This document shows, in pieces, positions 2,932 through 18,990 of a stretch of DNA of 24,164 nucleotides; position 1 is the first letter of the stretch; the number at the start of each line of letters is the position of its first letter. Source of the DNA: Spirochaetaceae bacterium (GTDB taxonomy: Bacteria; Spirochaetota; Spirochaetia; DSM-2461); contig JAQICO010000151.1 of NCBI GenBank assembly GCA_027858495.1, forward strand, positions 1 through 24,164. Reading direction: 5' to 3'. Below the pieces are notes generated by a model. The model was not told the origin of the DNA and did no database searches. It saw only the letters and a list, made by a program, of their open reading frames with translations. The translations under genes were made by a program, and so were the position numbers.

Positions 2932-3546
2932 ATGGGAAAGCGTAATGAAAAAAAGGAAGAGATAAAAAATAGAATACTTCAGGGAGCCGGTGAGGTTTTT
3001 GAAGTAATGGGTTTTGAAGATGCCACCATGCAGGAGATTGCCAGGAAAGCTGAGGTTGGCCTTGGAACCGCTTATAACTATTTCAAATCCAAGGAAGAGC
3101 TGTATATGCTTACTTTGGCAGATAAAATGAATCAGACCACTGGCGCTCCCATTGACGTTGAGGACAATTCACTTTCTGGTGCAGATATGGTTTGTCAGCA
3201 GATAATTAAACAGCTAAATACCCTGAAGCATATCCCCAAAAGCGTCTGGAAAACAGTTTTTGGTATATCCTTTAACTCTATGAAAAGGGATAAGTCTTTG
3301 CTGAAAAAAATTATGATGGCCGATTATCAGGCCATGGATAAAATTGCCCAATTGATTGATCTGTTAAATAAGAAAGGAAGTCTACAAGTCCAGGAAGACC
3401 CTAAAGTAATATCAGAAATCATTTACGGCTCTCTTTTTTTAGATATCATGATGTTTGTTTTTGAAGAGGAAAGAACCTTTCAGGAAACCTGTGATGCCAT
3501 ATGTAAAAAAATTCACTTTATTTTAGGGGAAAAACTTGATTTCTAA
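2932..3546 (+). CDS. TetR/AcrR-family transcriptional regulator (204 aa).
   Basis: The N-terminal HTH 'AGEVFEVMGFEDATMQEIARKAEVGLGTAYNYFKSKEELY' is a classic TetR_N signature. RBS is 'agggagattacATG'. A palindromic operator lies immediately upstream. Confidence 0.85.
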   Translation: MGKRNEKKEEIKNRILQGAGEVFEVMGFEDATMQEIARKAEVGLGTAYNYFKSKEELYMLTLADKMNQTTGAPIDVEDNSLSGADMVCQQIIKQLNTLKHIPKSVWKTVFGISFNSMKRDKSLLKKIMMADYQAMDKIAQLIDLLNKKGSLQVQEDPKVISEIIYGSLFLDIMMFVFEEERTFQETCDAICKKIHFILGEKLDF

Positions 3547-3566
3547 GAAAGGGTGTATTATTATAT

Positions 3567-3592
3567 TATTGTACTGTAGCACTAGTACAATA
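3567..3592 (+). promoter_or_regulatory. 26-bp palindrome TATTGTACT-N8-AGTACAATA in the 5' UTR of the GntR/YtrA gene; candidate GntR-type operator.
   Basis: The 9-bp arms are perfect inverted repeats with a GT...AC core, as expected for GntR-family operators. They sit directly before the RBS 'ggag' (3593-3596) and the ATG at 3603. A 'tattatt' direct repeat lies just upstream. Confidence 0.45.
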
Positions 3593-3602
3593 GGAGCTTT
3601 GA

Positions 3603-3989
3603 ATGGAAGAGCTTAAAAAACTGGAATTTCGTTTGGATCCCAAAGGGGGAGTTCCTTTCTACAAGCAGATTATTCTTCAAGTTGAGATGGCCATTGCAGA
3701 CGGTCGCTTGATTTCTGGAGAGCAGCTTCCTACTGTCCGGGGTCTGGCGGTGGATTTAAAGATTAATCCTAATACTGTTGCCAGGGCATATAACGAAATG
3801 GAGATTCGAGGAATCGTCAACACTCAACAGGGAACAGGAACCTTTATCAGCGATAGAGAAATTTCCATGACCGATGTGGAGCGTGAGAAAATCCTTACGG
3901 AATTGGTCCGTTCCTTTGTGGCACAGGCTGCTTCCTACGGTTTAACCCAGCAGGATCTATTGGAGTATTTACAGGAGGTTAAGTTATGA
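3603..3989 (+). CDS. GntR-family transcriptional regulator, short YtrA-like subfamily (128 aa).
   Basis: wHTH 'YKQIILQVEMAIADGRLISGEQLPTVRGLAVDLKINPNTVARAYNEMEIRGIVNTQQGTGTFIS' is typical of GntR N-termini. The short C-terminal region is characteristic of YtrA-type regulators, which usually govern adjacent ABC-transporter operons. Confidence 0.85.
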   Translation: MEELKKLEFRLDPKGGVPFYKQIILQVEMAIADGRLISGEQLPTVRGLAVDLKINPNTVARAYNEMEIRGIVNTQQGTGTFISDREISMTDVEREKILTELVRSFVAQAASYGLTQQDLLEYLQEVKL

Positions 3990-4014
3990 CGTCACTTTTT
4001 AGGGGGAACGTAAA

Positions 4015-5127
4015 ATGAATAGTTTACTGTTAAAAAAATTCGATAAAATAAAAAATATACAGGATAAGGCTATTCCTAAGGATTTTTCCTTCAACGGATT
4101 CTCCTGGATGGTTTTAATGGTTTTCTTAAGCGGAGGAATTTTCCTTCAATGGCTTTTAGGTCTCTTTCCAGAAACCCTGGAACTGATTGAAATCTGCGGT
4201 GCCTTTGTAGGTGCAGCTCTGCTTTTATCCCTGCTTGGCCAATGGACCGTTTTGCTGGTTGCATTAATGGTCCTATGGGGCGGCATTTATTATCAGCAGG
4301 GGCTTCAGTCTCCCTGGCTATTGATAACAGCCTCCATGGGACTCATTCTTGCCGCGTCCTTTCAGCTGGTTTACCAATGGGACAAGGTGGTGGTTTTGCG
4401 GATGGGCAAATTTAAAAAGGTCCATGGCCCGGGGCTTTTTTTAATGCTGCCGTTGTTGGACCGAATCGCTTCATTCATCGATACCCGTATACGCGCCACA
4501 GATTTTTCTGCGGAAAAATCCCTAACCATGGATACTGTACCGGTTCATGTGGATGCCCTGTGTTTCTGGATGATCTGGGATGCCCAGAAGGCTATTCTGG
4601 AGGTGGAAAATTATATAGAAGCGGTAACCCTATCTGCACAAACAGCTCTTAGAGACAGTATCGGCCATCATGATTTACATACCCTGCTTTCCGATCGAAG
4701 GGAATTAAGCCTGGAAATCCAGAAGGTTCTTGATGGAAAGACCAATTCCTGGGGTATTAGTATTTTATCGGTGGAATTTACGGAAATCATCATACCTCAG
4801 GAATTGGAGGATGCCATGAGTAAACAGGCTCAGGCGGAACGGGAGAGGAAATCCCGGGTCATATTAAGTCAGGCAGAGGTTGAAGTGGCCCGGGAATTTA
4901 AGAAGGCTGCGGATATCTATAGAGACGATCCCACGGCCCTGCAAATACGTTCCATGAACATGGTCTACGATGGATTAAAGCAAAAGAAGGGTTCTTTAAT
5001 GGTTTTACCTTCTTCGGCATTGGATCAGATGAATTTGGGTACCGTAATGGGAATGCAAGCCCAAAAAGAGATTAAAGAGATGGAAGAAAAGATAAGGGAA
5101 ACAGAGATAGAAGGAGGCAATAAATGA
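4015..5127 (+). CDS. SPFH/Band-7 (stomatin/prohibitin-like) membrane protein with an extended multi-TM N-terminus (370 aa).
   Basis: Residues ~30-120 hold 3-4 predicted TM helices (FSWMVLMVFLSGGIFLQWLLGLF, LIEICGAFVGAALLLSLLG, WTVLLVALMVLWGGIYY, WLLITASMGLILAASFQLVY). A Band_7 core follows ('VVVLRMGKFKKVHGPGLFLMLPLLDRIASFIDTRIRATDF...DALCFWMIWDAQKAILEVENYIEAVTLSAQTALRDSIGHHDLHTLLSDRRELSLEIQKVL...ILSVEFTEIIIPQELEDAMSKQAQAERERKSRVILSQAEVEVAREFKKAADIY'), ending in a coiled-coil E/K-rich tail. RBS is 'tagggggaacgtaaaATG'. Its stop overlaps the downstream ATPase start (ATGA). Confidence 0.8.
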   Translation: MNSLLLKKFDKIKNIQDKAIPKDFSFNGFSWMVLMVFLSGGIFLQWLLGLFPETLELIEICGAFVGAALLLSLLGQWTVLLVALMVLWGGIYYQQGLQSPWLLITASMGLILAASFQLVYQWDKVVVLRMGKFKKVHGPGLFLMLPLLDRIASFIDTRIRATDFSAEKSLTMDTVPVHVDALCFWMIWDAQKAILEVENYIEAVTLSAQTALRDSIGHHDLHTLLSDRRELSLEIQKVLDGKTNSWGISILSVEFTEIIIPQELEDAMSKQAQAERERKSRVILSQAEVEVAREFKKAADIYRDDPTALQIRSMNMVYDGLKQKKGSLMVLPSSALDQMNLGTVMGMQAQKEIKEMEEKIRETEIEGGNK

Positions 5128-5804
5128 TAGCCATTAATGATGTGAAACGAACCTATATCAGCGGTGATGTGAAGGTTCAAGCACTAAAAGGGGTTAACTT
5201 AACCATAGAAAAGGGAGATTTTATCTCCATTGCAGGGCCCTCGGGTTCCGGAAAAACCACATTGCTCAATCTGGTTGGCTGTATCGATAAAATCGACAGC
5301 GGAACCATCACCATTGATGATGTGGATGTGACCTCCATGAGTAAAGAAGAAAAGGCCTATTTTAGGAGAGACACCCTGGGATTTATCTTTCAGAGTTATA
5401 ATTTGATACCCGTTTTAACGTCATATGAAAATATTGCCTTTGCTCTAAATTTACTGGATGTGGATGACAAAGAAATTAAAGAACGCACCATGGAAATTCT
5501 CAAGGAAGTAGGACTGGAAGGCATGGAAGATCGCCGGCCCAACCGGCTTTCAGGAGGACAGCAGCAGCGAGTAGCCATTGCAAGAGCCTTGGTGAAACAG
5601 CCCAAGATTATTCTTGCCGACGAACCCACAGCCAATCTGGATTCCCATACCGGTGAAGAAATTCTAACACTGATGGAAGAAATGAACCAGAAACACAAAA
5701 CCACCTTTGTTTTTTCCACCCATGACAAAATGGTTATGGATTATGCCCACCGTTTAGTGGAATTACACGATGGAGTGATTAAGAGCGATATAAGACGCAA
5801 GTAA
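5124..5804 (+). CDS. ABC transporter ATP-binding protein, MacB/LolD/FtsE-type (226 aa).
   Basis: Walker A 'GPSGSGKTTLLNLVG', signature 'LSGGQQQRVAIARAL' and Walker B 'ILADEPTANLD' are present, plus the H-loop 'FSTHD'. RBS is 'gaaggagg'. A 4-bp ATGA overlap with the SPFH gene indicates translational coupling. Confidence 0.9.
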   Translation: MIAINDVKRTYISGDVKVQALKGVNLTIEKGDFISIAGPSGSGKTTLLNLVGCIDKIDSGTITIDDVDVTSMSKEEKAYFRRDTLGFIFQSYNLIPVLTSYENIAFALNLLDVDDKEIKERTMEILKEVGLEGMEDRRPNRLSGGQQQRVAIARALVKQPKIILADEPTANLDSHTGEEILTLMEEMNQKHKTTFVFSTHDKMVMDYAHRLVELHDGVIKSDIRRK

Positions 5805-5816
5805 AAGGAGGGCGCC

Positions 5817-7070
5817 ATGAAAGGATTGGTTTCCCTGGGATTAAAAAATATTCTGCGGTATAAACGCAGAACCATTATAACTGCCCTTGCCATCGGCATG
5901 GGTTTGATGATGTTCATATTAACCGATTCCATGCTGAAGGGTCTCAGCCTGGATTCTGAATTAAGTATTATAAAATACGAGGTTGGAGCGGGACGAATAG
6001 TCACTTCGGAGTATGCCGAGGACTTTGAGGATATGCCGTTAAAAGAAACCCTGGATCCTTCGGTGATGGCTAAGTTAGAGCAAGGTGATTTTATTTGGGC
6101 GCCCCGAATAGAATTTACCGCTGAGATGGTTTTTCGTAAAGATCCCTATCCTGTCTCGGGCCATATCAATGTCCGGGTAACCGCAGTGGATCCCCAACGG
6201 GATATACAGGTCTTTGATTTAGAGAATTTCCTCATTGAGGGAAGATATCCCTTTCCTCAGGAAGAGGGTGTTGTTCTGGGAAGCTGGCTGGCGGAAGATA
6301 TGGGAATTCACTTGGGCTACCCCGTAGATTTGAGTATTCAAACACGCTTTGGAGGCCAGGAGTTGATGGAACTGACGGTGGTTGGAATTGTGGAGAGTCC
6401 CGATTCCATGATCAATCGTGGCTTGGTAATGGTTCCATTAAAAGTAGCTCAGGATTATCTGGAGATGGATGGTCAGGTAACTCAAATCGCGGTGAAGGCT
6501 CCCATGTGGCGTTCTTTGGAGAATGGAGACCTACGGAGGCTGAAGGATTTACTTCAGGGGACAAATGGAGAATTCTATCCCTGGGAATTCTGGTCTCAGG
6601 ATTTTCTTTCCATAGCCGAGGGAAAACAAACCTCTGCCTCCACCATTCTTTTTCTTGTATTTATCATTGCTGCGGTGGGAATCTCCAACACCGTGTTAAT
6701 GAGTATTTTCGAACGGGTTCGAGAGCTGGGGATGATGCGGGCCTTAGGTCTGACCGAAAGGGATGTCCGGCTGCTCTTTTTAATAGAATCCGGAGCCATC
6801 GGTTTACTTGGATCCATCCTGGGTGTGATCATGGGCATTTTAGTTACCTGGGGAATGGTTACAAAGGGTATCGATTATTCCAGCTATACCGATATATTGC
6901 GGGAGCAGAATATGGGATACCGAATGGCCAGCGTGTTTTATGGTGTTTGGGTGCCCCAAACCATGATATTGGCGGCGGTGTTTGGCGTGGTTTTATGTGT
7001 TGTCATCGCCTGGTTTTCCACAAAAAAGATTAATCGTCTGGAGATAACCCAGTGTCTGAGGTTCCAGTGA
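5817..7070 (+). CDS. ABC transporter permease, FtsX/MacB/LolC-E family, with a large periplasmic domain (417 aa); permease 1.
   Basis: N-terminal TM 'LKNILRYKRRTIITALAIGMGLMMFILTDSMLKG', then a ~220-aa extracytoplasmic domain. A C-terminal 3-TM FtsX module follows ('ILFLVFIIAAVGISNTVLMSIFERVRELGMMRALGLTERDVRLLFLIESGAIGLLGSILGVIMGIL'). RBS is 'aaggaggg'. Confidence 0.85.
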   Translation: MKGLVSLGLKNILRYKRRTIITALAIGMGLMMFILTDSMLKGLSLDSELSIIKYEVGAGRIVTSEYAEDFEDMPLKETLDPSVMAKLEQGDFIWAPRIEFTAEMVFRKDPYPVSGHINVRVTAVDPQRDIQVFDLENFLIEGRYPFPQEEGVVLGSWLAEDMGIHLGYPVDLSIQTRFGGQELMELTVVGIVESPDSMINRGLVMVPLKVAQDYLEMDGQVTQIAVKAPMWRSLENGDLRRLKDLLQGTNGEFYPWEFWSQDFLSIAEGKQTSASTILFLVFIIAAVGISNTVLMSIFERVRELGMMRALGLTERDVRLLFLIESGAIGLLGSILGVIMGILVTWGMVTKGIDYSSYTDILREQNMGYRMASVFYGVWVPQTMILAAVFGVVLCVVIAWFSTKKINRLEITQCLRFQ

Positions 7071-7128
7071 TGAAACAATATAATTTTGGACCCCTTGGGT
7101 CAAAAGAAAGAAGTATAGGAGGGTTAGA

Positions 7129-8382
7129 ATGAAACTGGCTCAAATTGCATTAAGAAATATCAGCCGTAATCGGCGTCGAAGCATTTTGTCTGGTTCCGCT
7201 ATTTCCGTGGCCACCATGAGTATTGTGTTGCTCTTTTCTTTAATGGCGGGAATGACCGTGGATTTAAAAGACAATATGCAGACCTATAGAACCGGTGCTA
7301 TCCGGCTTAGGAACCGGGATTTTGGGAAATATGAAAGACTGAATCCAACACACTTAGTGGTTAGAAACGGTCAAGCCATCATGAATATTCTGGAAGAGCA
7401 GGAAGAGATATCCAGCCTGTCTCCCAGAATCAATTTTATGGGAGCCTATACCTGGGATGATAAATTAAAAAATGTCATGGGTGTCGCCGTGGATTTCCAG
7501 CGGGAAGAGGGCTTTCAGAATATTTCAGAGGTTTTGGTTGCCGGCCGGCTTCCCACTCCTGGAACTTCTGAAGCACTGGTTGGTGTTAAAATGGCCCAGA
7601 AACTAGGGGTTAATTTTGAAGACGATTTAGAGGATAAAATAACCATCGTCACCACCACGGCTCAAAGAAGAAAGAAACTTTTCACCATAGAGATTGTGGG
7701 TATTGCCGGATTTCCCATGTCTGCCTTAAACGATGCCATGGTTTTAATACCCCTTGATAGGGCCCAAGACCTGCTGCGCATGCCCGATGCCTATTCTGAA
7801 ATCCTGATAAAGGTGGACGAAGATGTGGTTGACGTAGATCTGTACACGCCTCAATTGGCAGAACTGCTCCCTCTGGAAACCGAAAGAGAAGAAGATTCCC
7901 TGGAATTGAAAAGCTGGAAAGAAGACAATACCATCTGGGGTATGATGAGCATGGCTCAGGCCATGTATATGATCTTTGCCTTTTTCTTCTTCGTGCTGGG
8001 CAGCTCGGTAATCATCAATACCACCATGATGGTAATTTTTGAACGCATGCGTGAAATCGGTACCCTTGCAGCCATGGGGATGAGAGGTCGAGAGTTAACT
8101 AAATTATTCTTCTTAGAAGCCTTTTTTATATCCTTCTTCGGGGCCTTGGCGGGATTGATTGTGGGCATGATAATTACCCAGATTTTTCATGTCTTCGGAT
8201 TGAATCTGGGAGCCATGATGGAGGGCATCGACTTTGATATTTCCACCATTATCTACCCTCAGCTGGATCTCTTTTATACCGCCTTTACCTTTGTCTTTGC
8301 CGTGCTGGTGGCATCGTTGGCAACCTTTATACCCTCAATAAGAGCTTCAAGAATCGAACCGGTAGACGCGTTGAGGGCATAG
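7129..8382 (+). CDS. ABC transporter permease, FtsX/MacB-like (417 aa); permease 2, divergent paralog.
   Basis: Topology matches permease 1: N-TM 'IALRNISRNRRRSILSGSAISVATMSIVLLFSLMAG', a periplasmic domain, and a C-terminal module 'MYMIFAFFFFVLGSSVIINTTMMVIFERMREIGTLAAMGMRGRELTKLFFLEAFFISFFGALAGLIVGMII'. RBS is 'taggaggg'. Confidence 0.8.
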   Translation: MKLAQIALRNISRNRRRSILSGSAISVATMSIVLLFSLMAGMTVDLKDNMQTYRTGAIRLRNRDFGKYERLNPTHLVVRNGQAIMNILEEQEEISSLSPRINFMGAYTWDDKLKNVMGVAVDFQREEGFQNISEVLVAGRLPTPGTSEALVGVKMAQKLGVNFEDDLEDKITIVTTTAQRRKKLFTIEIVGIAGFPMSALNDAMVLIPLDRAQDLLRMPDAYSEILIKVDEDVVDVDLYTPQLAELLPLETEREEDSLELKSWKEDNTIWGMMSMAQAMYMIFAFFFFVLGSSVIINTTMMVIFERMREIGTLAAMGMRGRELTKLFFLEAFFISFFGALAGLIVGMIITQIFHVFGLNLGAMMEGIDFDISTIIYPQLDLFYTAFTFVFAVLVASLATFIPSIRASRIEPVDALRA

Positions 8383-8408
8383 TAGATTTAATATTTTAGG
8401 AGGAAAAA

Positions 8409-9134
8409 ATGAAAAATTGGATAATTGTAAGCATGATATTTGCATTGACCACAGGGCTTTGGGCCATCACCGGTGATGAAATTATAGAACGTTCCGATGC
8501 CCAGCAGCGGTTTGATACAATGAAAAGTACTGGAATAATGAGAGCTGATGACCGTTTTGGTACCATTGAAAGTACCTTCATTTCACATAGCAGAGGAGAC
8601 AATGAGTTTTTGCTGGAGTTCACCAATATCGAAGAACAGGGTCAAAAGGTTTTACGGGTGGACGGAGATATCTACCTTTACGATCCCGATGCCGAAGAAA
8701 CCCTCAGAATGAGCGGTTCCTCCTTAAAGGATTCCATGTTCGGAGACATCTCCTATGAAGATGTCTCCGAGGGAAATGATACACTGAGTAAATATGATGC
8801 AGCGTTATTAAAGGAAGAAGCCATAAACGGAGTGAACTGTTACCTGGTGGAATTGACTGCCAAAACCCGCAGCGTGCCCTATCATCGTCAGCTCCTATGG
8901 ATCAGAGTGGACAATTTAGTACTGCTGCGTGGAGAATATTATTCCCGCCGGGGAACGCTGCTCAAGGAAATCCGTGTCTTGGAAACCATGGAGATCGGCG
9001 GTAAAGTGGTGTTGTCCCACTTGATTCTTGAAGATAAGGTTCGTGAGGATTCCTCTACCGAATTGATCATGAATAATATTGAGGTGAACATTGAATTGGA
9101 CGACCGTATGTTCACCGAGGAAGCGTTATTCTAA
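8409..9134 (+). CDS. LolA-like periplasmic protein (outer-membrane lipoprotein-sorting protein family, Pfam LolA_like type), 241 aa with signal peptide.
   Basis: Signal peptide 'MKNWIIVSMIFALTTGLWA'. The mature region is a beta-rich fold with the family-typical 'MSGSSLKDSMFGDISYEDV' (GSDFSYEDL-like) motif, plus 'CYLVELTAK' and 'YYSRRGTLLKE' segments. Strong RBS 'aggaggaaaaaATG'. It is embedded between FtsX permease genes, a typical neighbourhood for this family. Confidence 0.6.
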   Translation: MKNWIIVSMIFALTTGLWAITGDEIIERSDAQQRFDTMKSTGIMRADDRFGTIESTFISHSRGDNEFLLEFTNIEEQGQKVLRVDGDIYLYDPDAEETLRMSGSSLKDSMFGDISYEDVSEGNDTLSKYDAALLKEEAINGVNCYLVELTAKTRSVPYHRQLLWIRVDNLVLLRGEYYSRRGTLLKEIRVLETMEIGGKVVLSHLILEDKVREDSSTELIMNNIEVNIELDDRMFTEEALF

Positions 9135-10378
9135 TGAAATCCAAGTATATATTTACATTGGCCATAAAAAATTTAACCCGCCATAAGCGCAGGACCTTTA
9201 TTACTGTGTTGGTACTGGCCATCGGTATAGCAACCTTTATTCTTCTGGACTCCATGCTTATTGGAGCCCGGAGGGCTTCAGAGATAAATCTGATCCGCCA
9301 TGAGATGGGATCGGCCAAGTTAGTAACACCGGAATATTGGGACGAGTGGAGGGATTTCCCCTTGAAATCCTCCGTGGAGAATCCCCGGGATATAATCCAG
9401 GCCCTGGATGATGCGGGAATTACAGCAGTCCCCCGGATACAGATAAATACCACCATGGTAATCAATTCAGGAATTGGAGGTTCCCTGCCCTCCCTGCTGA
9501 TTGGAATGGATATGCAGCAGGATTCCAAGGTTTTTGATACCCAGGGAGCCCTGAGCAGCGGACGGCTGCCCCAACCGGGTGAGGAAGCCTTGTTAATGGG
9601 ATCATGGATGGCAACAGATCTGAAATTGGAACTGGGTGATATTGTCTTTTTTCAAGTGGTTGACCGTCAGGGAGGCAATGAGGTCCTGGAAGCAGAGATT
9701 GTGGGGCTACTGGATACTCCCGACCCCATGGTAAACCGTATGGGGGTATATATTCCCCTGGATACCCTGGACTATTATCTATTCATGGAAGAAAGTGTAA
9801 CGGAAATTGCCCTATCCTTTCCCATGGGACCGGGAAAACGATCCGCAAGAAAAAACGCTGAGAACATAGCCAAGGATTTCGGCTTGGAGCTTCATACTTG
9901 GCAGGATTGGTCACAGGATTATCTCGCTGCTTCTGAGGGTGACAAATACGGATCTTTCATTATTCTCGTGTTGGTGTTTATTATTGCGGCAGTGGGTTTT
10001 TCCAATACACTGCTGATGGCATTGCTGGAACGGGTACCGGAAACTGGAATGATGCGGGCCCTGGGAACCACACAGGCCCAGTTGAGACGGTTGTTTTTAA
10101 CAGAATCTCTAATGCAGGGCCTGGCAGGATCTCTATTTGGAATATTCCTTGGTGTTTTATTTAATATCCCGGTGGTACTAAAGGGAATCGATTACAGCAG
10201 TATAATGCGAGATATGAGTGTGGGCTATCGCTTTACGGGAATAATTTACGGAGTCTGGGCTTCCAGCAGCTATATTATCTCTATGTTAAGCGGGGTGTCC
10301 ATTGCACTTGCCGTGTCCTGGTTCAGCATTAAAAAAGCTCTCAAATTGAAGATAACCGATTCCATTCGGGGGAATTAG
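9134..10378 (+). CDS. ABC transporter permease, FtsX/MacB-like (414 aa); permease 3, close paralog of permease 1.
   Basis: Aligns with permease 1 along its whole length. Examples: 'IKNLTRHKRRTFITVLVLAIGIATFILLDSML' vs 'LKNILRYKRRTIITALAIGMGLMMFILTDSML', and 'LVLVFIIAAVGFSNTLLMALLERVPETGMMRALG' vs 'LFLVFIIAAVGISNTVLMSIFERVRELGMMRALG'. Its start overlaps the LolA-like stop (TAATG). Confidence 0.85.
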   Translation: MKSKYIFTLAIKNLTRHKRRTFITVLVLAIGIATFILLDSMLIGARRASEINLIRHEMGSAKLVTPEYWDEWRDFPLKSSVENPRDIIQALDDAGITAVPRIQINTTMVINSGIGGSLPSLLIGMDMQQDSKVFDTQGALSSGRLPQPGEEALLMGSWMATDLKLELGDIVFFQVVDRQGGNEVLEAEIVGLLDTPDPMVNRMGVYIPLDTLDYYLFMEESVTEIALSFPMGPGKRSARKNAENIAKDFGLELHTWQDWSQDYLAASEGDKYGSFIILVLVFIIAAVGFSNTLLMALLERVPETGMMRALGTTQAQLRRLFLTESLMQGLAGSLFGIFLGVLFNIPVVLKGIDYSSIMRDMSVGYRFTGIIYGVWASSSYIISMLSGVSIALAVSWFSIKKALKLKITDSIRGN

Positions 10379-10440
10379 ACTCAGCTCATTTCCAAGTATA
10401 ATTCCTTTCGACAGAGGGAGTGTCTTAGAGGAGAATAACA

Positions 10441-11649
10441 ATGAAAAAAAATATAATCATCATCTTTGTACTGGGTTTATTGACTTCCCTGGCCGCAGAG
10501 ACCAGTCTGAGTCTGGATATGCGTTTTATGCAGTCCCTCTATCGCGGTGCGGATAATAAATTATACAGTCAACCTGCAGGTACGGTGGAAATGACCATGC
10601 GATCTGCAGGAAACAGCGATGTTAAGGCCGATCTAATGATCGATTACATACCCATGAATGCCCCGCCAGGCGGAATGGCGCTGCCCCTTTTTGATCTTAA
10701 AAAAGCCTCGGTAAAGCTTCGTTTCCCCGGTCTTAGAATAACCATGGGTAAAACCCGGGTAGGCTGGGGTGAAGGGTCGGTTTTTAATTCCGGCGCTGTG
10801 CTTTTTGGAAGTCTCTCTCCCCTGGTTGACCTGACCCAGGATGAAGCCCGAACTGATACAGCCTGGCTGACCTTGCTTCGCTGGAGTCCCTCGGGAGATT
10901 TCTGGGTGGAGGGGATTTATATGCCTCCCACTCCCTCCTGGGATATTTCCATTGATAATGATGCCGACGATGTTACCCCGGAATATTTTTCCTTAAATAA
11001 CAGTGTTCCCGATGTCTACAGCAGTTCTGCCGGCTTGCGGATGGTGGGTGAATTGGGAGACCTGATTGTGGAAACCGGATATCTTGCCAAGGGAGAGTTA
11101 AAGGCCCTGGGTGATGTCACTGGTCATCGGCCCTATATTACCCTTCATGGAGAAATGTATTTTGATCTTTATGGCTCGGCATCCATGGCCATACCCTGGC
11201 AGGATTTTGACTGGGATACAGATCGAGGGTCCTTTAATATCAGCGCAGGTCTGTTCCGTCAGTTTCAACTATGGTATGACGGTACATTGTCCGCACGGAT
11301 GGAATTTTTGGTCTTTCCCTATCAAAAATGGGAGGAACAGGATTTCAGGCTAAATCCTCTGGCAAATGAGACCTACAGTCTTTATTTATACCCCGAGTTT
11401 AATTTAGCCATAGGACGAAATTTAAATATCCCCCTAATGGCCATGATTTCACCGCTGGATCAATCTGCCCAGATAACCGCGGGATTCTCCTGGAAGGTAT
11501 ATCAGGGATTCAGCTTCTTGGGTTACGGAATCTTTTCTGTAGGCCAATCGAAAGATGTTTTCGCCTGGGACAGACTATCCTCCGATCTTATGGTGGGCGA
11601 TGTAATAAATGGCTGGTCCGTAATGACTGGGCTTAGGTATACCTTCTAA
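10441..11649 (+). CDS. Predicted outer-membrane beta-barrel protein (402 aa) with signal peptide and C-terminal beta-signal.
   Basis: Signal peptide 'MKKNIIIIFVLGLLTSLAAE'. Amphipathic alternating-hydrophobic strands run throughout. The C-terminus '...WSVMTGLRYTF' has the OMP beta-signal pattern: terminal Phe and hydrophobic residues at -3 and -5. RBS is 'agaggag'. No family assignment possible by eye. Confidence 0.55.
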   Translation: MKKNIIIIFVLGLLTSLAAETSLSLDMRFMQSLYRGADNKLYSQPAGTVEMTMRSAGNSDVKADLMIDYIPMNAPPGGMALPLFDLKKASVKLRFPGLRITMGKTRVGWGEGSVFNSGAVLFGSLSPLVDLTQDEARTDTAWLTLLRWSPSGDFWVEGIYMPPTPSWDISIDNDADDVTPEYFSLNNSVPDVYSSSAGLRMVGELGDLIVETGYLAKGELKALGDVTGHRPYITLHGEMYFDLYGSASMAIPWQDFDWDTDRGSFNISAGLFRQFQLWYDGTLSARMEFLVFPYQKWEEQDFRLNPLANETYSLYLYPEFNLAIGRNLNIPLMAMISPLDQSAQITAGFSWKVYQGFSFLGYGIFSVGQSKDVFAWDRLSSDLMVGDVINGWSVMTGLRYTF

Positions 11650-11722
11650 TAAACTGGGATTGTGGGAATATTTAATAATCTCTAAACAGCTTTTGTCATG
11701 GTGTGTTATGATTATGCCTAAT

Positions 11723-12805
11723 ATGAAATTTTTTATATCGATTATTAGCCTATTATTATTTACCCAATGTCTCAGTTATGATGGACCGGAGATGGATTTA
11801 TCCAATGATCCCTTTTATTTGGGAGCAGACCTGTCATCGGTAAATGAAATGGAAGATCAAAATATTGTTTTTACCAGGGGAGATCAAACCATTGATCCCT
11901 ACGAATTTTTTTCCCATTGGGGCATGAATCTTGTAAGACTTCGCCTTTGGCATAGCCCTACTTGGACGGAGTACTTTACCTTGCCTGATGTCAAAAAAAG
12001 TATATCCAGGGCCAGGGAGCAGGGAATGACCGTTCTCTTGGATTTCCATTATTCCGATACTTGGGCTGATCCGGGAAGTCAAATCCCCCCTGCCAGCTGG
12101 CAGGGATCCTCCGATGAAGAGATGGCGGAGCAGTTGTATTTGTACACCTATGAAACCTTGGAGGCTCTGAACCAACAAGATTTACTTCCAGAAATGGTGC
12201 AGCTTGGTAATGAGATAAATCAGGGAATATTAAAATCACAAAGTGATATAGATTGGCCCAGACAATCCTTGTTATTCAATGCTGCCATTGCTGCTGTTCA
12301 TGAGATGGAGCAGACCAGTGGGAAATCCATTGAAATTATGCTGCATATAGCTGGGCCGGAGAATGCCCAATGGTGGTTTGATAAAGCCATAGAGGCAGGC
12401 ATTCAAGACTTCGACCTCATTGGGTTATCCTACTATCCCACGTGGAGTACCCTCGGGCTAAAGCAATGCGGTTCAATGCTGAGTTTTTTGGCTCAGCGAT
12501 ACCAGCGTCAAGTGATGATTGTTGAAACTGGATATCCATGGACATCGGAGGATTCCATAGATACAGCGGATAATATCCTTAATAAAGGGTTGCGCCGCTA
12601 TGGAATTTCCAAAGACGGACAGAGGCAATTCTTTGATGATTTGGTAGATATTGCCAGGGAGTCAGGAGCAATCGGCGTCGTTTACTGGGAGCCCGCATGG
12701 GTGTCCACCGATTCCCCCAGTCCCTGGGGAGTTGGTTCCCATTGGGAAAATATAACCTGGTTTGACTTTGAGAATCGATTACACCAATCATGGGAAACTC
12801 CATGA
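11723..12805 (+). CDS. Glycoside hydrolase family 53 endo-beta-1,4-galactanase, secreted or lipoprotein (361 aa from the ATG at 11723).
   Basis: Shows the GH53 hallmarks 'DFHYSDTWADPGSQ', acid/base motif 'VQLGNEINQG' and nucleophile motif 'MIVETGYPW'. The N-terminal signal is 'MKFFISIISLLLFTQC'. The track ORF begins at a TTG at 11660 and ATGs also occur at 11708 and 11714, so the exact start is uncertain. Confidence 0.75.
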   Translation: MKFFISIISLLLFTQCLSYDGPEMDLSNDPFYLGADLSSVNEMEDQNIVFTRGDQTIDPYEFFSHWGMNLVRLRLWHSPTWTEYFTLPDVKKSISRAREQGMTVLLDFHYSDTWADPGSQIPPASWQGSSDEEMAEQLYLYTYETLEALNQQDLLPEMVQLGNEINQGILKSQSDIDWPRQSLLFNAAIAAVHEMEQTSGKSIEIMLHIAGPENAQWWFDKAIEAGIQDFDLIGLSYYPTWSTLGLKQCGSMLSFLAQRYQRQVMIVETGYPWTSEDSIDTADNILNKGLRRYGISKDGQRQFFDDLVDIARESGAIGVVYWEPAWVSTDSPSPWGVGSHWENITWFDFENRLHQSWETP

Positions 12806-14316
12806 CAGATCTTAAGGATTTTCTTCAATCTCATAGGCTTTTCACTCATCTTAACAGTAAACAGTTAAAATCCTTGGTACAGCATTGCAGGGTATTACAA
12901 TGCCCTATGGACTCCACTTTGTTTTATCCCAGAGAAAGAATCGATTCTCTTCTATTGGTGAGGGACGGATGTCTTTCCTTGGGAAAACAGAGGGCCTTTG
13001 GGGGCAACAGCCTGTTTATAAGCTCTCTGGCCCTTCCAATAGAAATGGATGAACCATTGATTGCCGCAGAAGAAAGTCGGATTATCATTCTAAAAAGAAA
13101 TGCCTTTCTTCGTTGGATTCGTGCCAATAGAGGAGCATTAAGACGTTTGGGTGCACATACTTTTGGCCAAAAAGAATGGGGATTCCCCTGGATTTTTTGG
13201 AAGGAATACGGTGCATTGCTGCCCCTGGGGCGAAAAGTGAAGAACCAGAAGGCCCTTTTGGTTCTCCGACGATGGTGGCCCCTATGGCTGGTTCGGCAGC
13301 TTCCATTTGTGGGTATAGCAGGGTTCTCCCTGTTCTTTCCTGTGGTTTGGTGGCTCGCCATACCTGCAGGACTGGCATTCCTCTTTTCTTTGCTTCTAAG
13401 ACATTCCAACGGGCTTTTTATAACACCTGCCTCGGTAATTGTCAGGATTTTTAAACTTAGAGGACTCCATCGTCAGGTGATGAAGATACCCCTTGAGCAA
13501 ATAAAGGCTCTGGAAATTCAGCGCCGTGGGATAATACCCTCCATATTAAGGGTGGGTAGTCTGGCCATGAAAACCAGTTCCTTACAGGGCTCCTTTGTGG
13601 TCCCTCAGATCAGAAAACCAGAAAGGGCAGAGCAGCTGCTAAACTCTTTAAGAGAACAAAGGGGTGGAGCGAAACCCGACAGATTAACCCGACTAAAAGA
13701 AGCATGGCAACGTAGAAAGTCCGATAATAATCACCCTAAAGAACTTTTCCAAGGATCGCTCTATAATCCTACTGTAAAAACCCAAGAGGTAATCCGTTTT
13801 AAGAAATCTCCCTTTGTATTATTTAAACATATATTTATACCATTATTGATATGGTTACTTCCGCTGAGCGCCTTGGTTTTCCAATTTTTTCCCGAGCCTT
13901 GGAATATTCCTCTTCTCCTTTTATCTCTTCCTCCTTTAGGATTGCTGCTCTATCGATGGGAGGATTGGCGAAATGATATTTTTAAGGTGGCCGGTGATTC
14001 TGTTTTTGACGTAGATAAAAAGCCCCTGGGTAAAGAGATGACCCGCCGCCAAACCCAGTTGGTTCAAATAGAAAATATCACCGCACGTCAGAAGGGTTTT
14101 GCTTCCTGGCTGTTCAATGCAGGGTCTGTTCGAATTATCTTACCGGGAGAAACCGGAGAATTTGAGTTTGAGGATGTAAAAGATCCTTGGTTTGTACAGG
14201 ATGAACTATTAAGGCTGCGCACAGAGGCTTTGGAAAAACAAAAAATGAGCCAACAGGATGAACGTTTTCAAGAGCTTTTGGATTTGGCTGATCTTTTGGC
14301 TCAAGAGCTTCGATAA
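12802..14316 (+). CDS. Membrane protein with an N-terminal cNMP-binding-like domain followed by two TM-hairpin + bPH_2 (YdbT/YdbS-like bacterial PH) modules (504 aa).
   Basis: Start taken at the ATGA overlap with the GH53 stop at 12802-12805 (the track start at 12790 is also possible). Residues ~10-110 resemble a degenerate cNMP-binding fold ('LFTHLNSKQLKSLVQHCRVLQCPMDSTLFYPRERIDSLLLVRDGCLSLG...FGGNSLF'). The first TM pair is 'LLVLRRWWPLWLVRQLPFVGIAGFSLFFPVVWWLAIPAGLAFLFSLLL'. bPH-like 1 is 'ITPASVIVRIFKLRGLHRQVMKIPLEQIKALEIQRRGIIPSILRVGSLAMKT'. The second TM pair is 'IFIPLLIWLLPLSALVF...LLLLSLPPLGLLLY'. bPH-like 2 is 'IFKVAGDSVFDVDKKPLGKEMTRRQTQLVQIENITARQKGFASWLFNAGSVRIIL'. A coiled-coil C-tail follows. 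Confidence 0.55.
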   Translation: MTDLKDFLQSHRLFTHLNSKQLKSLVQHCRVLQCPMDSTLFYPRERIDSLLLVRDGCLSLGKQRAFGGNSLFISSLALPIEMDEPLIAAEESRIIILKRNAFLRWIRANRGALRRLGAHTFGQKEWGFPWIFWKEYGALLPLGRKVKNQKALLVLRRWWPLWLVRQLPFVGIAGFSLFFPVVWWLAIPAGLAFLFSLLLRHSNGLFITPASVIVRIFKLRGLHRQVMKIPLEQIKALEIQRRGIIPSILRVGSLAMKTSSLQGSFVVPQIRKPERAEQLLNSLREQRGGAKPDRLTRLKEAWQRRKSDNNHPKELFQGSLYNPTVKTQEVIRFKKSPFVLFKHIFIPLLIWLLPLSALVFQFFPEPWNIPLLLLSLPPLGLLLYRWEDWRNDIFKVAGDSVFDVDKKPLGKEMTRRQTQLVQIENITARQKGFASWLFNAGSVRIILPGETGEFEFEDVKDPWFVQDELLRLRTEALEKQKMSQQDERFQELLDLADLLAQELR

Positions 14317-14335
14317 TTTTCCCGATTCTAAAAAT

Positions 14336-15904
14336 ATGAGATACCAATGGCTTTGTCTATTATTTATATTCCTTTTGAGTTTTGGGCTCCATGCCCAAGA
14401 GGCCTATTATAGAGCTGTAGGCTACGATGCCTTCCATCGTATTGAGGGTCAATTTCCTCTGGATGCCACTGACAGTGAGGATCTAAACTGTTATCGTTTT
14501 ACCTATGACGAATTAGAAGAGCCTGTACGTATTGAGTACCTAAATCGCGGCAGAGCTCTGGCAGATCCTTTTTTTAAAGTTCCCGTTGTAGAAATTGAGT
14601 ATTCAGAAGGTTTTATCCACAGAATATATAAGGATTCTCAGGGCAAACCGGCTCCCGACGAACAAGGTGTATACTCACAACGGTTAAAATTAAACACACA
14701 GGGATTCGCTCAATCTCTCTTTAACTATGACCGCTTGGGTAATCTACGCAGTGACAATATGGGAGTAGCAGCCTATTACTGGAATCTTGATAAGAACGGT
14801 TTATCCGTTGAGGCGTTATTTCTTAACAGTTATGGAGAGCCCGTGCAAAATCGAGAAGGTATATCTTTAATAAGATATGACTATGATGAAGCTTTCAGAA
14901 TGAAGGAACTTCGCTATCTAAACCCTCAGGGAGAACCCATAACCAGTAATGAAACGGCCATCGCTGGAATGACTTTCAGTTATAATGATCAGGGATTGAA
15001 GGAAGAGCAAACTTTTTTGGATGAACAAGGAAACCTTGCCAGCAATATAGAAAATATATCAAAAATCCGCTGGGCCTACGACGAACAGGGCTCTATGCTT
15101 CTGCAGGAGCATTATGATGATCAGGATAATCTAACCACCGATGTGCACCATGTGGCAGTATACTTTTGGGGTTATGACTCAAGGGGTAATAGAATCCTTC
15201 AGGAGCATTACAATACCCTGGGAGAGCCCACTGAGGATGATGCCGGAGTTTTCCGTTATAGATGGATTTATTACGAACAGGGCAATGAACTTGAAAAAAT
15301 CAATGAAAATCTAGATGGTTCTCTTACCCTAGATGATTGGGGGCTTGCATCCTACCGATGGACCTTTGATGAACGTGGTCAAATCACCGAAGCCAAGTAT
15401 TACGGAATAGACGACAGCCTGAAAGAAGACAATTGGGGCGTTGCCATTTATCAATGGGATTATGACGATAGTGGAAATATGGTTGAATCCAGGTCTTTTT
15501 CTGATTGGGAAACCCTGCAGGATGATTCCAGAGGTGTTGCTGTTTACCGTTGGGCCTATGATGATCGGGGAAACCGTATAATGGAAAATCATTATGACAG
15601 CCGAGAGATTCAGGTAGAAGACAGCGATGGAATTGCTTCTATCGGCTGGAGTTACGATGATGAGAATAATATGAATAAGCAGGAACAGTTTGGACTATAC
15701 GGACAATATAGAGCCGATAATAAGGGTGTGGCCATATATCATTGGGATCATGACCGTTTTGGGAATATCATCGAAGAGACTTACCTCGGAATCGATGAAC
15801 AGAACGTAGAGAATGTTTCAGGTATTGCCTTGGCCAGATGGTCCTATGACAACCTTGGAAATAGATTAAGAGTTGCCAGATTTGATCGAAAAAGTATTCC
15901 CTGA
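14336..15904 (+). CDS. Secreted tandem-repeat protein with ~14 YD-like (Rhs/YD-repeat-related) 33-aa repeats (522 aa from the ATG at 14336).
   Basis: Signal peptide 'MRYQWLCLLFIFLLSFGLHAQ' (the track start at 14258 would add a second hydrophobic stretch). The repeated unit is 'G-[VI]-A-x-Y-x-W-x-YD-x-x-GN-x-[IL]-x-E-x-[YH]-(x8-10)-D-x-x-G'. Examples: 'VAVYFWGYDSRGNRILQEHY', 'VAIYQWDYDDSGNMVESRSF', 'VAVYRWAYDDRGNRIMENHY', 'VAIYHWDHDRFGNIIEETYL', 'IALARWSYDNLGNRLRVARF'. There is no C-terminal toxin or other domain. Confidence 0.55.
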   Translation: MRYQWLCLLFIFLLSFGLHAQEAYYRAVGYDAFHRIEGQFPLDATDSEDLNCYRFTYDELEEPVRIEYLNRGRALADPFFKVPVVEIEYSEGFIHRIYKDSQGKPAPDEQGVYSQRLKLNTQGFAQSLFNYDRLGNLRSDNMGVAAYYWNLDKNGLSVEALFLNSYGEPVQNREGISLIRYDYDEAFRMKELRYLNPQGEPITSNETAIAGMTFSYNDQGLKEEQTFLDEQGNLASNIENISKIRWAYDEQGSMLLQEHYDDQDNLTTDVHHVAVYFWGYDSRGNRILQEHYNTLGEPTEDDAGVFRYRWIYYEQGNELEKINENLDGSLTLDDWGLASYRWTFDERGQITEAKYYGIDDSLKEDNWGVAIYQWDYDDSGNMVESRSFSDWETLQDDSRGVAVYRWAYDDRGNRIMENHYDSREIQVEDSDGIASIGWSYDDENNMNKQEQFGLYGQYRADNKGVAIYHWDHDRFGNIIEETYLGIDEQNVENVSGIALARWSYDNLGNRLRVARFDRKSIP

Positions 15905-16123
15905 TTAACCAAGCTCAGCTATGGCTAAATAGGCTTTATCCTTTTCATCGGGATATAGGTCCCCTGGGACTTTATCCTCTCCTACTGAAGTGGCCACCAT
16001 ATAGCGGGCACAATGTAGACTGTTACTCTCACAGTATTCCTGTTTGAGTTTATCTATATCTGGTGTGTCGGTCATTTTTCCCTGACCGAAGGGGCATTTG
16101 TCGTAAATCTCACAATTTGCCAA
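15905..16123 (-). CDS. Hypothetical small Cys-containing protein (72 aa), possible metal-binding.
   Basis: 'MANCEIYDKCPFGQGKMTDTPDIDKLKQEYCESNSLHCARYMV...' has Cys pairs C4-x5-C10 and C31-x6-C38. RBS is 'aggaaagaaaATG' and a near-consensus promoter lies upstream. The composition is protein-like. Its stop abuts the YD-repeat gene stop (tgaTTA). Confidence 0.4.
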   Translation of the reverse strand: MANCEIYDKCPFGQGKMTDTPDIDKLKQEYCESNSLHCARYMVATSVGEDKVPGDLYPDEKDKAYLAIAELG

Positions 16124-16154
16124 TTTTCTTTCCTAGTTGTTTTGATATAGTAAT

Positions 16155-16183
16155 ATTGTAAGGCCAAATTGTCCTGCGGTCAA
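16155..16183 (-). promoter_or_regulatory. Near-consensus sigma70 promoter TTGACC - 17 nt - TACAAT on the minus strand, upstream of the 72-aa ORF.
   Basis: Minus-strand sequence reads 'gagTTGACCgcaggacaatttggcctTACAATattactatatcaaaacaactaggaaagaaaATG'. It lies in the 124-bp gap after ispF. Confidence 0.35.
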
Positions 16184-16247
16184 CTCAGAAGAATTTGAAA
16201 AGCTGTGGGTTCAGAGTGAAGATTTTCGTTCTCTTCTTCACAATAGC

Positions 16248-16736
16248 TTAACCTATATTCTCTGTTGCTAATAATACAACCACAGAGGCTTCAATGGATA
16301 ATCCTTCACCAACAGGACCAAGTTTCTCCGCCGTTTTTGCTTTTACGGATATTTGTTCTTCCTGGATTTTTAACAGATTTGCCAGACTTTTTTTTATGGG
16401 TTCTATCCATTGAGATAATTTGGGGCTTTGAAGGACCACGGTACTATCTAGGTTTATTATCCTATATCCCCGTTTTTCAATTTTACTCATTGTATCTTTT
16501 AACAAAAAGGCGCTATCAACATCCTTCCATTTTTCCTGACTTGGGGGATAATATTTGCCAATATCGCCCAAGGCTAGTGCTCCCAGTAATGCATCTATGA
16601 TTCCATGGATCAACACATCTCCATCGGAATGAGCCTCTTCTCCAAATCCACAGGGAATATGAACTCCTCCCAATATTAATGGACGTCCCAATACCAAGGC
16701 ATGGCAATCCCAACCCTGGCCTATTCTTAGACTCAT
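16248..16736 (-). CDS. ispF: 2-C-methyl-D-erythritol 2,4-cyclodiphosphate synthase (MEP pathway).
   Basis: 'MSLRIGQGWDCHALVLGRPLILGGVHIPCGFGEEAHSDGDVLIHGIIDALLGALALGDIGKYYP' matches the IspF consensus (RIGxGxDxH...SDGDV..H...DALLGA.ALGDIG). It has a 4-bp ATGA overlap with ispD. Confidence 0.9.
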   Translation of the reverse strand: MSLRIGQGWDCHALVLGRPLILGGVHIPCGFGEEAHSDGDVLIHGIIDALLGALALGDIGKYYPPSQEKWKDVDSAFLLKDTMSKIEKRGYRIINLDSTVVLQSPKLSQWIEPIKKSLANLLKIQEEQISVKAKTAEKLGPVGEGLSIEASVVVLLATENIG

Positions 16737-18909: not shown

Positions 18910-18918
18910 TTTGAGAAT

Positions 18919-18990
18919 ATGATGAGGGAGAGGGTTTAACGTAAAAGAAAAAACATCTCCCTCATCATTGATTTATTTCTCTTTTTTTTG
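18919..18990. terminator. Hairpin terminator between convergent genes: a 13-bp perfect stem (ATGATGAGGGAGA / TCTCCCTCATCAT) with a 24-nt loop, followed by a T-rich tract on the + strand.
   Basis: Stem arms are 18919-18931 and 18956-18968. Downstream is 'tgatttatttctcttttttttg', which overlaps the last codons of proW on the opposite strand. It is a good intrinsic terminator for the + strand lipoprotein gene and weaker for the minus-strand operon. Confidence 0.5.

Follow-up and report, generated by a model that had tools for sequence, protein, structure and literature searches.

Does a run of nine tightly packed genes in a spirochaete encode one machine that spans the cell envelope, and how much of such a machine has precedent elsewhere? 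The question is raised by a stretch of Spirochaetaceae DNA of 24,164 nucleotides (nt; hereafter the window), in which a nine-gene block at positions 2932-11649 had been proposed to combine two regulators, an SPFH protein, an ABC ATPase with three FtsX-type permeases, a LolA-like protein, and an outer-membrane β-barrel. Judged by gene order in relatives, the conserved unit within this block is a set of seven genes, not nine: GntR(YtrA-like)-SPFH-ATPase-FtsX(A)-FtsX(B)-LolA_like-outer-membrane protein (OMP). Every component is of a known kind; the combination is an ABC-driven, SPFH-associated, YtrA-regulated version of a trans-envelope module of the LolA_like + DUF1302 type, conserved across the Spirochaetota. 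As to function, we give roughly an even chance to the reading that the operon provides an inducible, Lol-like route for hydrophobic cargo, leading from an extractor through a carrier to a barrel, with no periplasmic adaptor and with a co-expressed stomatin-type scaffold.

Gene content of the block

The nine open reading frames (ORFs) are as follows (TM, transmembrane helix):

2932-3546, + strand: TetR-family regulator, 204 aa (Pfam TetR_N, E 1.2e-11)
3603-3989, + strand: short GntR-family (YtrA-like) repressor, 128 aa (Pfam GntR, 2.1e-14), at the head of the conserved string
4015-5127, + strand: stomatin/slipin-type SPFH protein, 370 aa (Pfam Band_7, 1.9e-31; 109.9 bits against a cut-off of 23.6)
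5124-5804, + strand: ABC ATPase of the MacB/LolD/DevA type (Pfam ABC_tran, 2e-35)
5817-7070, + strand: FtsX permease 1 (A type), with TM1, a periplasmic MacB_PCD domain of ~225 aa, and TM2-4
7129-8382, + strand: FtsX permease 2 (B type), for which the closest solved chains are LolF, LolE, MacB, and YtrF
8409-9134, + strand: LolA_like (PF17131 / TP_0789-like) protein (Pfam, 1.1e-45; 156 bits against a cut-off of 30)
9134-10378, + strand: FtsX permease 3 (A-type duplicate), with the LolA_like gene directly before it
10441-11649, + strand: outer-membrane 18-stranded β-barrel (predicted model), 402 aa, with a signal peptide and C-terminal ...GLRYTF

All nine genes run in the same direction, start and stop where the original prediction had placed them, and are separated by -4 to 62 nt. 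The SPFH stop and the ATPase start share 4 nt in an ATGA junction, while the start of the third permease gene and the stop of the LolA_like gene share 1 nt. The proposed domains were likewise confirmed by profile hidden Markov models (HMMs): Pfam recovers TetR, GntR, Band_7, ABC_tran, LolA_like, and, in three permeases, FtsX with MacB_PCD. Among the nine window proteins, no Pfam match to a membrane-fusion protein family or to the NfeD family was obtained. A terminator scan within the operon returned 18 candidates against 14.2 ± 3.7 in shuffles, hence no excess, and a promoter scan within the operon gave no convincing internal signals. The NCBIfam scores of the ATPase, the permeases, the GntR protein, and the TetR protein all lie under the curated cut-offs, those of the ATPase and the permeases by a wide margin, and none of the nine proteins is, on profile evidence, an orthologue of a component of a named system.

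Conservation of the operon in Spirochaetota

The first sign that this gene order is shared came from three contigs with barrel homologues. For the locus survey, the SPFH protein was scanned against one genome per GTDB species, and the resulting 80 loci (cited below by L numbers where needed) were annotated through tblastn and phmmer searches and with an HMM built iteratively from barrel sequences. Among the Spirochaetota loci (n = 45), 29 carry the complete GntR-SPFH-ABC-FtsX-FtsX-LolA_like-OMP string, 13 run off the end of their contig midway through the same order, and three (L016, L024, and L027) carry GntR-SPFH without this transporter. The full seven-gene string is therefore present in 29 of the 32 untruncated Spirochaetota genome loci, a conservation of gene order that far exceeds chance, and it was also found in six distinct metagenome loci (seven were fetched). 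Conservation of gene order had been named beforehand as a test that could overturn the prediction, and on this point the prediction was upheld.

The tight junction of the SPFH and ATPase genes, an ATGA overlap in the window, also recurs in relatives: the two genes overlap in 24 of 44 loci and lie within 20 nt of one another in 41. Treponema-type loci from metagenome-assembled genomes (MAGs) possess the operon as well (L031, L034-L038, L041, and L042); here, the barrel occupies the same position and is very diverged, so that it was found only via profile iteration and hhalign. As a separate observation, gene calling places a 52-aa ORF (7826-7984) between the FtsX(B) and LolA_like genes of L086/L087, at a point where the gap in the window measures 26 nt.

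A type VII ABC transporter with A and B permeases

The claim of a type VII ABC transporter of the MacB/LolCDE kind, operating without a membrane-fusion protein, is supported both by the FtsX and MacB_PCD domains of all three permeases and by the lack of such a Pfam family in the block. In the ATPase, a pattern search retrieved the Walker A (GPSGSGKT) and signature (LSGGQ) motifs, and ILADEP was read in the sequence; Walker A, signature, and Walker B are intact, as is characteristic of a type VII ATPase. Its NCBIfam matches are to DarD, DevA, LolD, FtsE, and MacB (1e-62 to 1e-70), all under the cut-offs. The hydropathy of the permeases (TM1 at ~18-46, TM2-4 at ~270-405) follows the topology of type VII permeases, and the LolC/E models are their nearest NCBIfam matches, with FtsX-family models matching too.

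In a neighbour-joining tree, the permeases of the first position (A type) and those of the second position (B type) form separate clades across all loci. The third permease always falls inside the A type and, in the group formed by the window, L001, and L018, it clusters with the A copy of its own lineage. A third permease in that position occurs only in the window, L001, L002, L018, L088, and L089; Sphaerochaeta (L021 and L023) has a separately derived extra A-type permease 3' of the OMP gene. The tree thus presents the third permease as a recent, lineage-specific duplicate of the A type that has arisen at least twice. Because the A and B clades are distinct and the third copy is always of the A type, the ancestral pump is predicted to be an A/B heterodimer with one ATPase gene, as LolCDE is, and the extra A-type permease probably gives an alternative A'B pump. 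The ratio of three permeases to one ATPase, which had been regarded as a distinctive trait, is real in the window; most loci, however, have two permeases (A + B), the third being a repeated duplicate.

These features invite comparison with LolCDE-LolA(-LolB) of E. coli, which, like the window operon, pairs a single ATPase gene with two distinct FtsX-type permeases in a type VII ABC, has a soluble carrier of the LolA superfamily and no membrane-fusion protein, and transfers its cargo to an outer-membrane acceptor, as the window system presumably does. The window operon differs in its PF17131 carrier, its predicted acceptor (an 18-stranded barrel rather than the lipoprotein LolB), its control by a repressor, and its SPFH gene. 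If the operon nevertheless performed housekeeping Lol lipoprotein sorting, the barrel would replace the missing LolB, and the matches of the permeases to LolC/E, the match of the ATPase to LolD, and the logic of the A/B heterodimer would all fit. The scores, however, fall far under the NCBIfam cut-offs (80-111 bits against 362 for lolCE; 222 against 308 for LolD), the Pfam matches of the carrier include PF17131 and no canonical LolA family, and the relatives of carrier and barrel act with RND pumps on small lipophiles. Some spirochaete loci, furthermore, retain GntR-SPFH but lack the rest of the operon, which has a repressor of its own, and we consider this explanation very unlikely.

We regard as highly improbable that the complex is a mechanotransmission regulator resembling FtsEX-EnvC, in which ATP would switch periplasmic or outer-membrane partners and nothing would be transported. 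The type VII fold and the FtsX-family matches of the permeases are compatible with such a role, but the partner encoded here belongs to the LolA superfamily and is not an enzyme activator, its relatives being predicted periplasmic proteins mostly of unknown function, and no hydrolase gene is conserved in the operon. MacAB-TolC and DevBCA-HgdD represent the same ABC class, with MacB_PCD + FtsX permeases, and the window ATPase is near the DevA and MacB models; in contrast to these systems, none of the nine proteins matches a membrane-fusion family in Pfam, TolC is not among the best structural matches of the barrel, and a soluble carrier is predicted instead.

The LolA_like carrier and the outer-membrane barrel

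The sixth conserved gene encodes a LolA-like periplasmic protein, as anticipated, with a PF17131 score (156 bits) far above the cut-off of 30. Its relatives by sequence in the PDB (4Z48, 3BUU, 9TP6, and 3BK5) belong to the LolA superfamily. The N-termini of 36 homologues resemble signal peptides and have no lipobox cysteine at the predicted cleavage site, and the protein is predicted to be a soluble periplasmic carrier.

The ninth protein of the block, proposed to be an outer-membrane β-barrel, indeed models as an 18-stranded barrel with a signal peptide, and its best structural matches are of the 18-stranded Wzi/OprD/AlgE type, not TolC. The barrel family is small, with 333 clusters at 50% identity (E ≤ 1e-3) among 1.84 billion representatives; this spread was taken from a local HMM iteration and a full representative search, as a word-indexed homologue search under-reports (40 matches for the carrier and 16 for the barrel). 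A direct Pfam assignment was attempted and rejected: the window protein has no match, four of 16 family members show weak matches to Wzi, and ten distant representatives match nothing. By hhalign, a 51-sequence profile of spirochaete barrels aligns with a profile of three DUF1302-like proteins (from Prevotella, Burkholderia thailandensis, and metagenome contig L084) over 261 columns, with a probability of 94% and E 1e-7, compared with E 0.71 for the reversed control and E ≥ 0.004 for twenty block-shuffled controls. The 16-member barrel profile gave no significant alignment with the single Prevotella DUF1302 or L084 sequence. Because of the profile-profile alignment and the weak Wzi matches, we regard the barrel as a remote DUF1302/Wzi-like relative outside the Pfam family criteria; besides this remote homology, it shares with DUF1302 barrels the 18-strand fold and a position beside a LolA-superfamily gene. 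A local duplication of the barrel gene was noted in L040, where two copies with equal HMM scores (15299-16573 and 18637-20115) lie ~2 kb apart.

The carrier is also encoded at loci that lack SPFH. Prevotella nigrescens has an MMPL transporter gene followed by LolA_like and DUF1302; in B. thailandensis, LolA_like is followed by an ABC ATPase, a fused double FtsX permease, and a 380-aa protein with a weak DUF1302 match; and in L084, a fused FtsX permease and LolA_like precede a 413-aa protein that carries a signal peptide and the same GKxxxxWG motif and ends in ...RYSF. Judged by these remote similarities, the LolA_like + barrel pair of the window is related to a widespread, poorly characterised pairing of LolA_like/DUF1329 with DUF1302, usually beside RND/MMPL pumps. 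Such modules (AmeABCD; Sama_1588-1591; PP_0765/0766 with PP_2018/2019; Prevotella) likewise place a LolA-superfamily gene beside an 18-stranded barrel and an inner-membrane transporter. For these, cofitness of DUF1302, DUF1329 (LolA-like), a BNR protein, and an RND exporter was reported, and export of a cell-wall component was proposed (Price et al.). AmeABCD of Castellaniella defragrans has the same make-up as this set and has been described as a system for efflux of apolar monoterpenes. Finally, a 2026 study identified DUF1302 as an 18-stranded barrel like the Occ channels and AlgE, the same fold neighbours as those of the window barrel, and modelled a DUF1302-DUF1329 complex with AF-Multimer (interface predicted template modelling score, ipTM, 0.84).

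The window operon differs from these modules in being energised by an ATP-driven type VII ABC instead of a proton-driven RND pump, in having no BNR/Ycf48-like protein, in adding an SPFH protein and a YtrA repressor, and in a barrel too diverged for Pfam DUF1302. The combination of genes had been put forward as undescribed. For the SPFH protein together with a type VII ABC this stands, as no description of SPFH or slipin combined with FtsX, MacB, LolCDE, GntR, or an ABC transporter was found in the open-access literature, but the LolA_like + barrel pair has a precedent in LolA_like/DUF1329 + DUF1302.

A second precedent is the BBJ23-BBJ29 cluster on lp38 of Borrelia burgdorferi, for which a computational study (2026, PMC13078400) describes a MacB-like type VII ABC with its ATPase, a LolA-like protein, and an outer-membrane barrel, and proposes that a non-polar ligand is carried from the inner to the outer membrane. 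The Borrelia barrel, however, is Omp85/BamA-like, the permease was modelled as a homodimer, and the text of PMC13078400 contains neither SPFH nor GntR. Borrelia BBJ28 was considered as a close homologue of LolA_like and rejected, since tblastn against plasmids gave no Borrelia record; the two carriers are therefore not close homologues. The asserted departure from known paradigms holds for the lack of a membrane-fusion protein and the presence of SPFH; a MacB-like ABC clustered with a LolA-like protein and an OMP has its precedent in Borrelia. TP0785-TP0790 of T. pallidum was also rejected as the same operon, because TP0790 is modelled as an RND pump and TP0784-0786 as parts of the Lpt system; TP0789, from which PF17131 takes its alternative name, adjoins an RND pump and not an ABC transporter.

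Regulators and operators

Three DNA elements accompany the regulator genes:

2878-2915, no strand: 38-bp near-perfect palindrome (ATGAACCTATTCACGAATG followed by CATTCACGAATAGGTTCAT), directly upstream of the TetR gene, with 19-nt arms, 89% complementary, and no spacer
3536-3564, + strand: promoter-like site TTGATT-17-TATTAT (consensus match only), immediately upstream of the GntR operator
3570-3589, no strand: predicted operator TGTACT-N8-AGTACA, 14-33 nt upstream of the GntR start codon

The motif TGTACT-N8-AGTACA has a single match in the whole window, with 0 mismatches at a search tolerance of up to 2. Of 46 spirochaete loci, 38 carry it 20-55 nt in front of the GntR gene, and it also precedes GntR in L088 and in 8 acidobacterial loci. 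Occurrences were counted with ≤1 mismatch per half-site in 181-nt regions, for which a hand estimate gives a chance expectation of ~1% per region. The motif is missing from the Chloroflexota loci with GntR-SPFH. The promoter-like site is supported by its position beside the conserved operator, and as both elements stand before GntR, the conserved operon begins at this gene.

The GntR domain spans residues 20-82 and is followed by a short tail, without a large effector domain. The best NCBIfam matches, both under the cut-off and both YtrA-type repressors, are the Rv1152 family (1.3e-23) and PmtR (1e-16). With a GntR winged helix, a very short C-terminal region, a position at the head of an ABC operon, and a palindromic operator, the protein has the traits of the YtrA subfamily, and it is best read as a self-repressor that would act on the operon via the predicted operator TGTACT-N8-AGTACA. 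The ytrABCDEF operon of Bacillus subtilis and PmtR-pmt of Staphylococcus are likewise ABC exporter operons led by a short GntR repressor, and YtrF, an FtsX-type permease of the ytr operon, is among the PDB matches of the window permease, whereas the window regulator scores under the PmtR and Rv1152 cut-offs. Both of these operons are from Gram-positive bacteria, and neither is known to include a carrier, barrel, or SPFH gene.

The TetR gene has a narrower distribution, standing upstream of GntR in the window, L088, and L089 only, among the loci surveyed. Its 38-bp palindrome, a probable TetR operator, recurs upstream of TetR in L089 and in part in L088, and is confined to these close relatives of the window. 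The best NCBIfam match of the TetR protein, near full length, is Bacillus-type FadR (44 bits against a cut-off of 200), and this resemblance is only a hint towards fatty-acyl compounds. By its distribution, the TetR protein is a recent, clade-specific accessory with its own probable operator, outside the conserved operon. Two dedicated regulators, each with a palindromic operator, had been attributed to the system; both palindromes are real and recur in relatives, and are therefore not due to chance, but only the GntR protein belongs to the conserved system.

The SPFH protein

The SPFH protein is 31-38% identical to stomatins, its PDB sequence matches being PH stomatin (5.9e-37), human stomatin, and QmcA, and its top Foldseek matches are also to stomatin. 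More than 120 homologues share 54-71% identity with it, and those with source names are from Spirochaetales. Hydrophobic helices at residues 28-47, 54-74, 77-95, and 100-120 form an N-terminal membrane domain, modelled with a predicted local distance difference test (pLDDT) score of 86-94 over residues 30-110. Together with the Band_7 match (1.9e-31), these four helices corroborate the description of a multi-TM SPFH/Band-7 protein. Long helices follow the Band_7 domain in the predicted model (262-301 and 306-323).

The structural matches include solved SPFH assemblies with membrane-protein partners, namely FtsH-HflK/C and stomatin-aquaporin 1, and by analogy with its solved relatives the protein most plausibly forms a cage-like oligomer. 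HflK/C-FtsH, QmcA-YbbJ, and stomatin-aquaporin 1 share with the window protein a stomatin-type SPFH domain with coiled-coil, and its gene adjoins those of a candidate client. In contrast to these cages, its operon has no NfeD partner, its N-terminal membrane domain comprises four TM helices where theirs is a single hairpin or anchor, and an ABC transporter takes the place of the candidate client. In L086, an NfeD-FloA pair (FloA being a flotillin-type SPFH protein; 15065-16738) lies ~6 kb downstream of the operon, and these genomes therefore have at least two different SPFH systems.

Proposed mechanism

ATP-driven extraction by mechanotransmission is established for LolCDE and MacB. From the gene content, folds, operon conservation, and operators observed here, we infer the direction of transport, the class of cargo, the physical contacts, and the inducing signal of the following model. 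The short YtrA-type GntR repressor would silence the operon in the absence of a signal from the envelope or from a lipophile; on receipt of such a signal, pump, carrier, barrel, and scaffold would be made together. The heterodimeric A/B type VII complex, with two copies of the single ATPase, would then lift a hydrophobic or amphiphilic molecule from the outer (periplasmic) leaflet of the inner membrane by mechanotransmission. Soluble LolA_like would receive this cargo from the ABC complex, ferry it, and pass it to the 18-stranded DUF1302-like barrel for insertion or release. Presumably translated from the same message, the stomatin-type SPFH protein may act as an oligomeric scaffold that gathers the pump within it or keeps the membrane stable under the same stress. 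The lineage of the window has gained the TetR regulator and a second A-type permease.

This model draws support from the recurrence of a transporter, LolA_like, and a DUF1302-like barrel as a triad in Prevotella (MMPL), B. thailandensis (fused FtsX ABC), and L084. For the cargo, which had first been suggested to be a lipoprotein, lipid, or lipidated glycan, related systems favour small lipophiles or envelope lipids over lipoproteins. Furthermore, YbbAP-TesA, in which a type VII ABC works with a partner in the periplasm, was recently reported to extract hydrophobic compounds by mechanotransmission.

A number of observations weigh against the model. The GntR-SPFH pair stands alone in Acidobacteriota (L047, L052-L054, L058, L068, L070, and L074), at loci that carry an operator of the TGTACT-N8-AGTACA type, and it is found without this transporter in three spirochaete loci. 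In Anaerolineales (Chloroflexota), it is followed by a YhfC-type intramembrane metalloprotease, a DrrA-like ABC ATPase, an ABC-2 permease, and a Big_7 protein, an arrangement seen in at least ten loci (L059, L063, L064, L069, L072, L073, L076, L079, L080, and L083). As the pair exists without this transporter or with another exporter, the SPFH protein may not contact the pump and may be a co-regulated partner, not an obligate part of the machine; its monomer model is, in addition, poor outside the TM bundle (pLDDT 40-70). As for the barrel, Pfam DUF1302 (PF06980) matches neither the window protein nor 16 family members nor 10 distant representatives, and the Wzi matches of the four members are weak (best E 4e-4), as is that of the Prevotella DUF1302 protein, such that the link is remote. 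Finally, P. putida strains mutated in DUF1302/DUF1329 genes grow poorly on Tween 20 and on fatty esters (butyl stearate), which could point to uptake instead of export.

The distribution of GntR-SPFH, which gene order presents as an independently conserved and independently mobile regulator-scaffold pair, allows the operon to be viewed as two functionally separate modules, in which YtrA-SPFH would serve membrane organisation or the response to membrane stress in general and the exporter would be unrelated, the SPFH protein neither contacting nor regulating the ABC. Such a division would account for the solitary pair in Acidobacteriota and, among the spirochaete loci, at L016 and L027, for its place before YhfC, DrrA-like ABC, and ABC-2 genes in Anaerolineales, and for an operator that accompanies the pair, acidobacterial loci included. 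It sits less easily with SPFH and ATPase genes that overlap or abut in 41 of the 44 spirochaete loci, with the retention of the string in 29 of 32, and with the placement of the pair directly upstream of an ABC exporter independently in two phyla, a pattern suggestive of a repeated functional tie with ABC export. Taken together, we find the two-module explanation somewhat unlikely. Indeed, the occurrence of GntR-SPFH before two unrelated classes of ABC exporter argues for a functional link to export, just as its stand-alone occurrence argues against an obligate structural role of the SPFH protein. We hold it unlikely that the SPFH protein is an obligate structural part, its cage surrounding and gating the type VII ABC extractor in a supercomplex like HflK/C-FtsH, with the whole system forming a spirochaete-specific, LolB-independent route for a native class of envelope lipid or lipoprotein via the DUF1302-like barrel.

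The growth defects of the P. putida mutants on Tween 20 and butyl stearate, together with the resemblance of the barrel to OprD/Occ substrate-specific uptake channels in structural comparison, raise the matter of direction. In an uptake or return pathway, the barrel and LolA_like would capture a hydrophobic nutrient (a fatty ester or lipid) or a mislocalised lipid and pass it inward, like Mla-type retrograde traffic. Against this, the characterised type VII ABC systems met in our search are described in terms of export or outward mechanotransmission, the related AmeABCD triad has been described as effluxing monoterpenes, and a dedicated repressor with a scaffold looks more like a stress-induced exporter. 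Inward transport thus appears quite improbable to us, and outward transport through extractor, carrier, and barrel is the direction that we adopt.

Genes neighbouring the operon

The window also contains the following genes:

276-1502, - strand: IS256-type (Transposase_mut) transposase, split between ORFs of 266 aa and 134 aa, ~1.4 kb 5' of the TetR gene
11660-12805, + strand: GH53 endo-beta-1,4-galactanase (Pfam, 9.9e-94), immediately 3' of the barrel gene
12790-15904, + strand: two large overlapping ORFs, 508 aa (weak bPH_2 match) and 548 aa (single RHS-repeat match)
16248-17890, - strand: ispF (YgbB), ispD, and a CarD-family regulator
18973-21049, - strand: ABC importer pair, an ATPase with C-terminal CBS domains and a BPD_transp_1 permease, unrelated to the operon

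The transposase is probably frameshifted or decayed, and its position is occupied in L088/L089 by FtsK and an unknown gene. The real start of the GH53 gene is likely a Met near 11723, which would open the signal peptide MKFFISIISLLLFTQC. This gene looks like a local insertion, because it is missing at the same position in L088, where a bPH_2 gene comes straight after the barrel and a comparable ORF pair (501 and 522 aa) lies 3' of the operon. The downstream genes were considered as operon members and rejected, as GH53, bPH_2, and the RHS-like ORF in the window, and MsrA or a Fic-like gene in relatives, are not co-conserved. The order of ispF, ispD, and the CarD-family gene is shared with L088 and represents local synteny outside the operon. 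The ABC importer pair presumably resembles osmoprotectant uptake systems.

Significance

The practical value of these findings is modest unless pathogenic treponemes prove to have the system and it is important in them; the operon does occur in Treponema-type MAG loci. Their biological bearing is threefold. They touch on the clients of bacterial SPFH scaffolds beyond FtsH, for which the operon supplies a clear candidate, on the role of the widespread LolA_like/DUF1329 + DUF1302 pairs, and on the manner in which spirochaetes, in which no LolB has been identified, bring hydrophobic envelope components to their unusual outer membrane. These questions are testable, because the operon is conserved and tightly packed, with a defined operator and a candidate client. 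Should the SPFH protein form an obligate supercomplex with the pump and the system constitute a LolB-independent route, this would provide the first mechanistic function for the LolA_like/DUF1329 + DUF1302 pairing.

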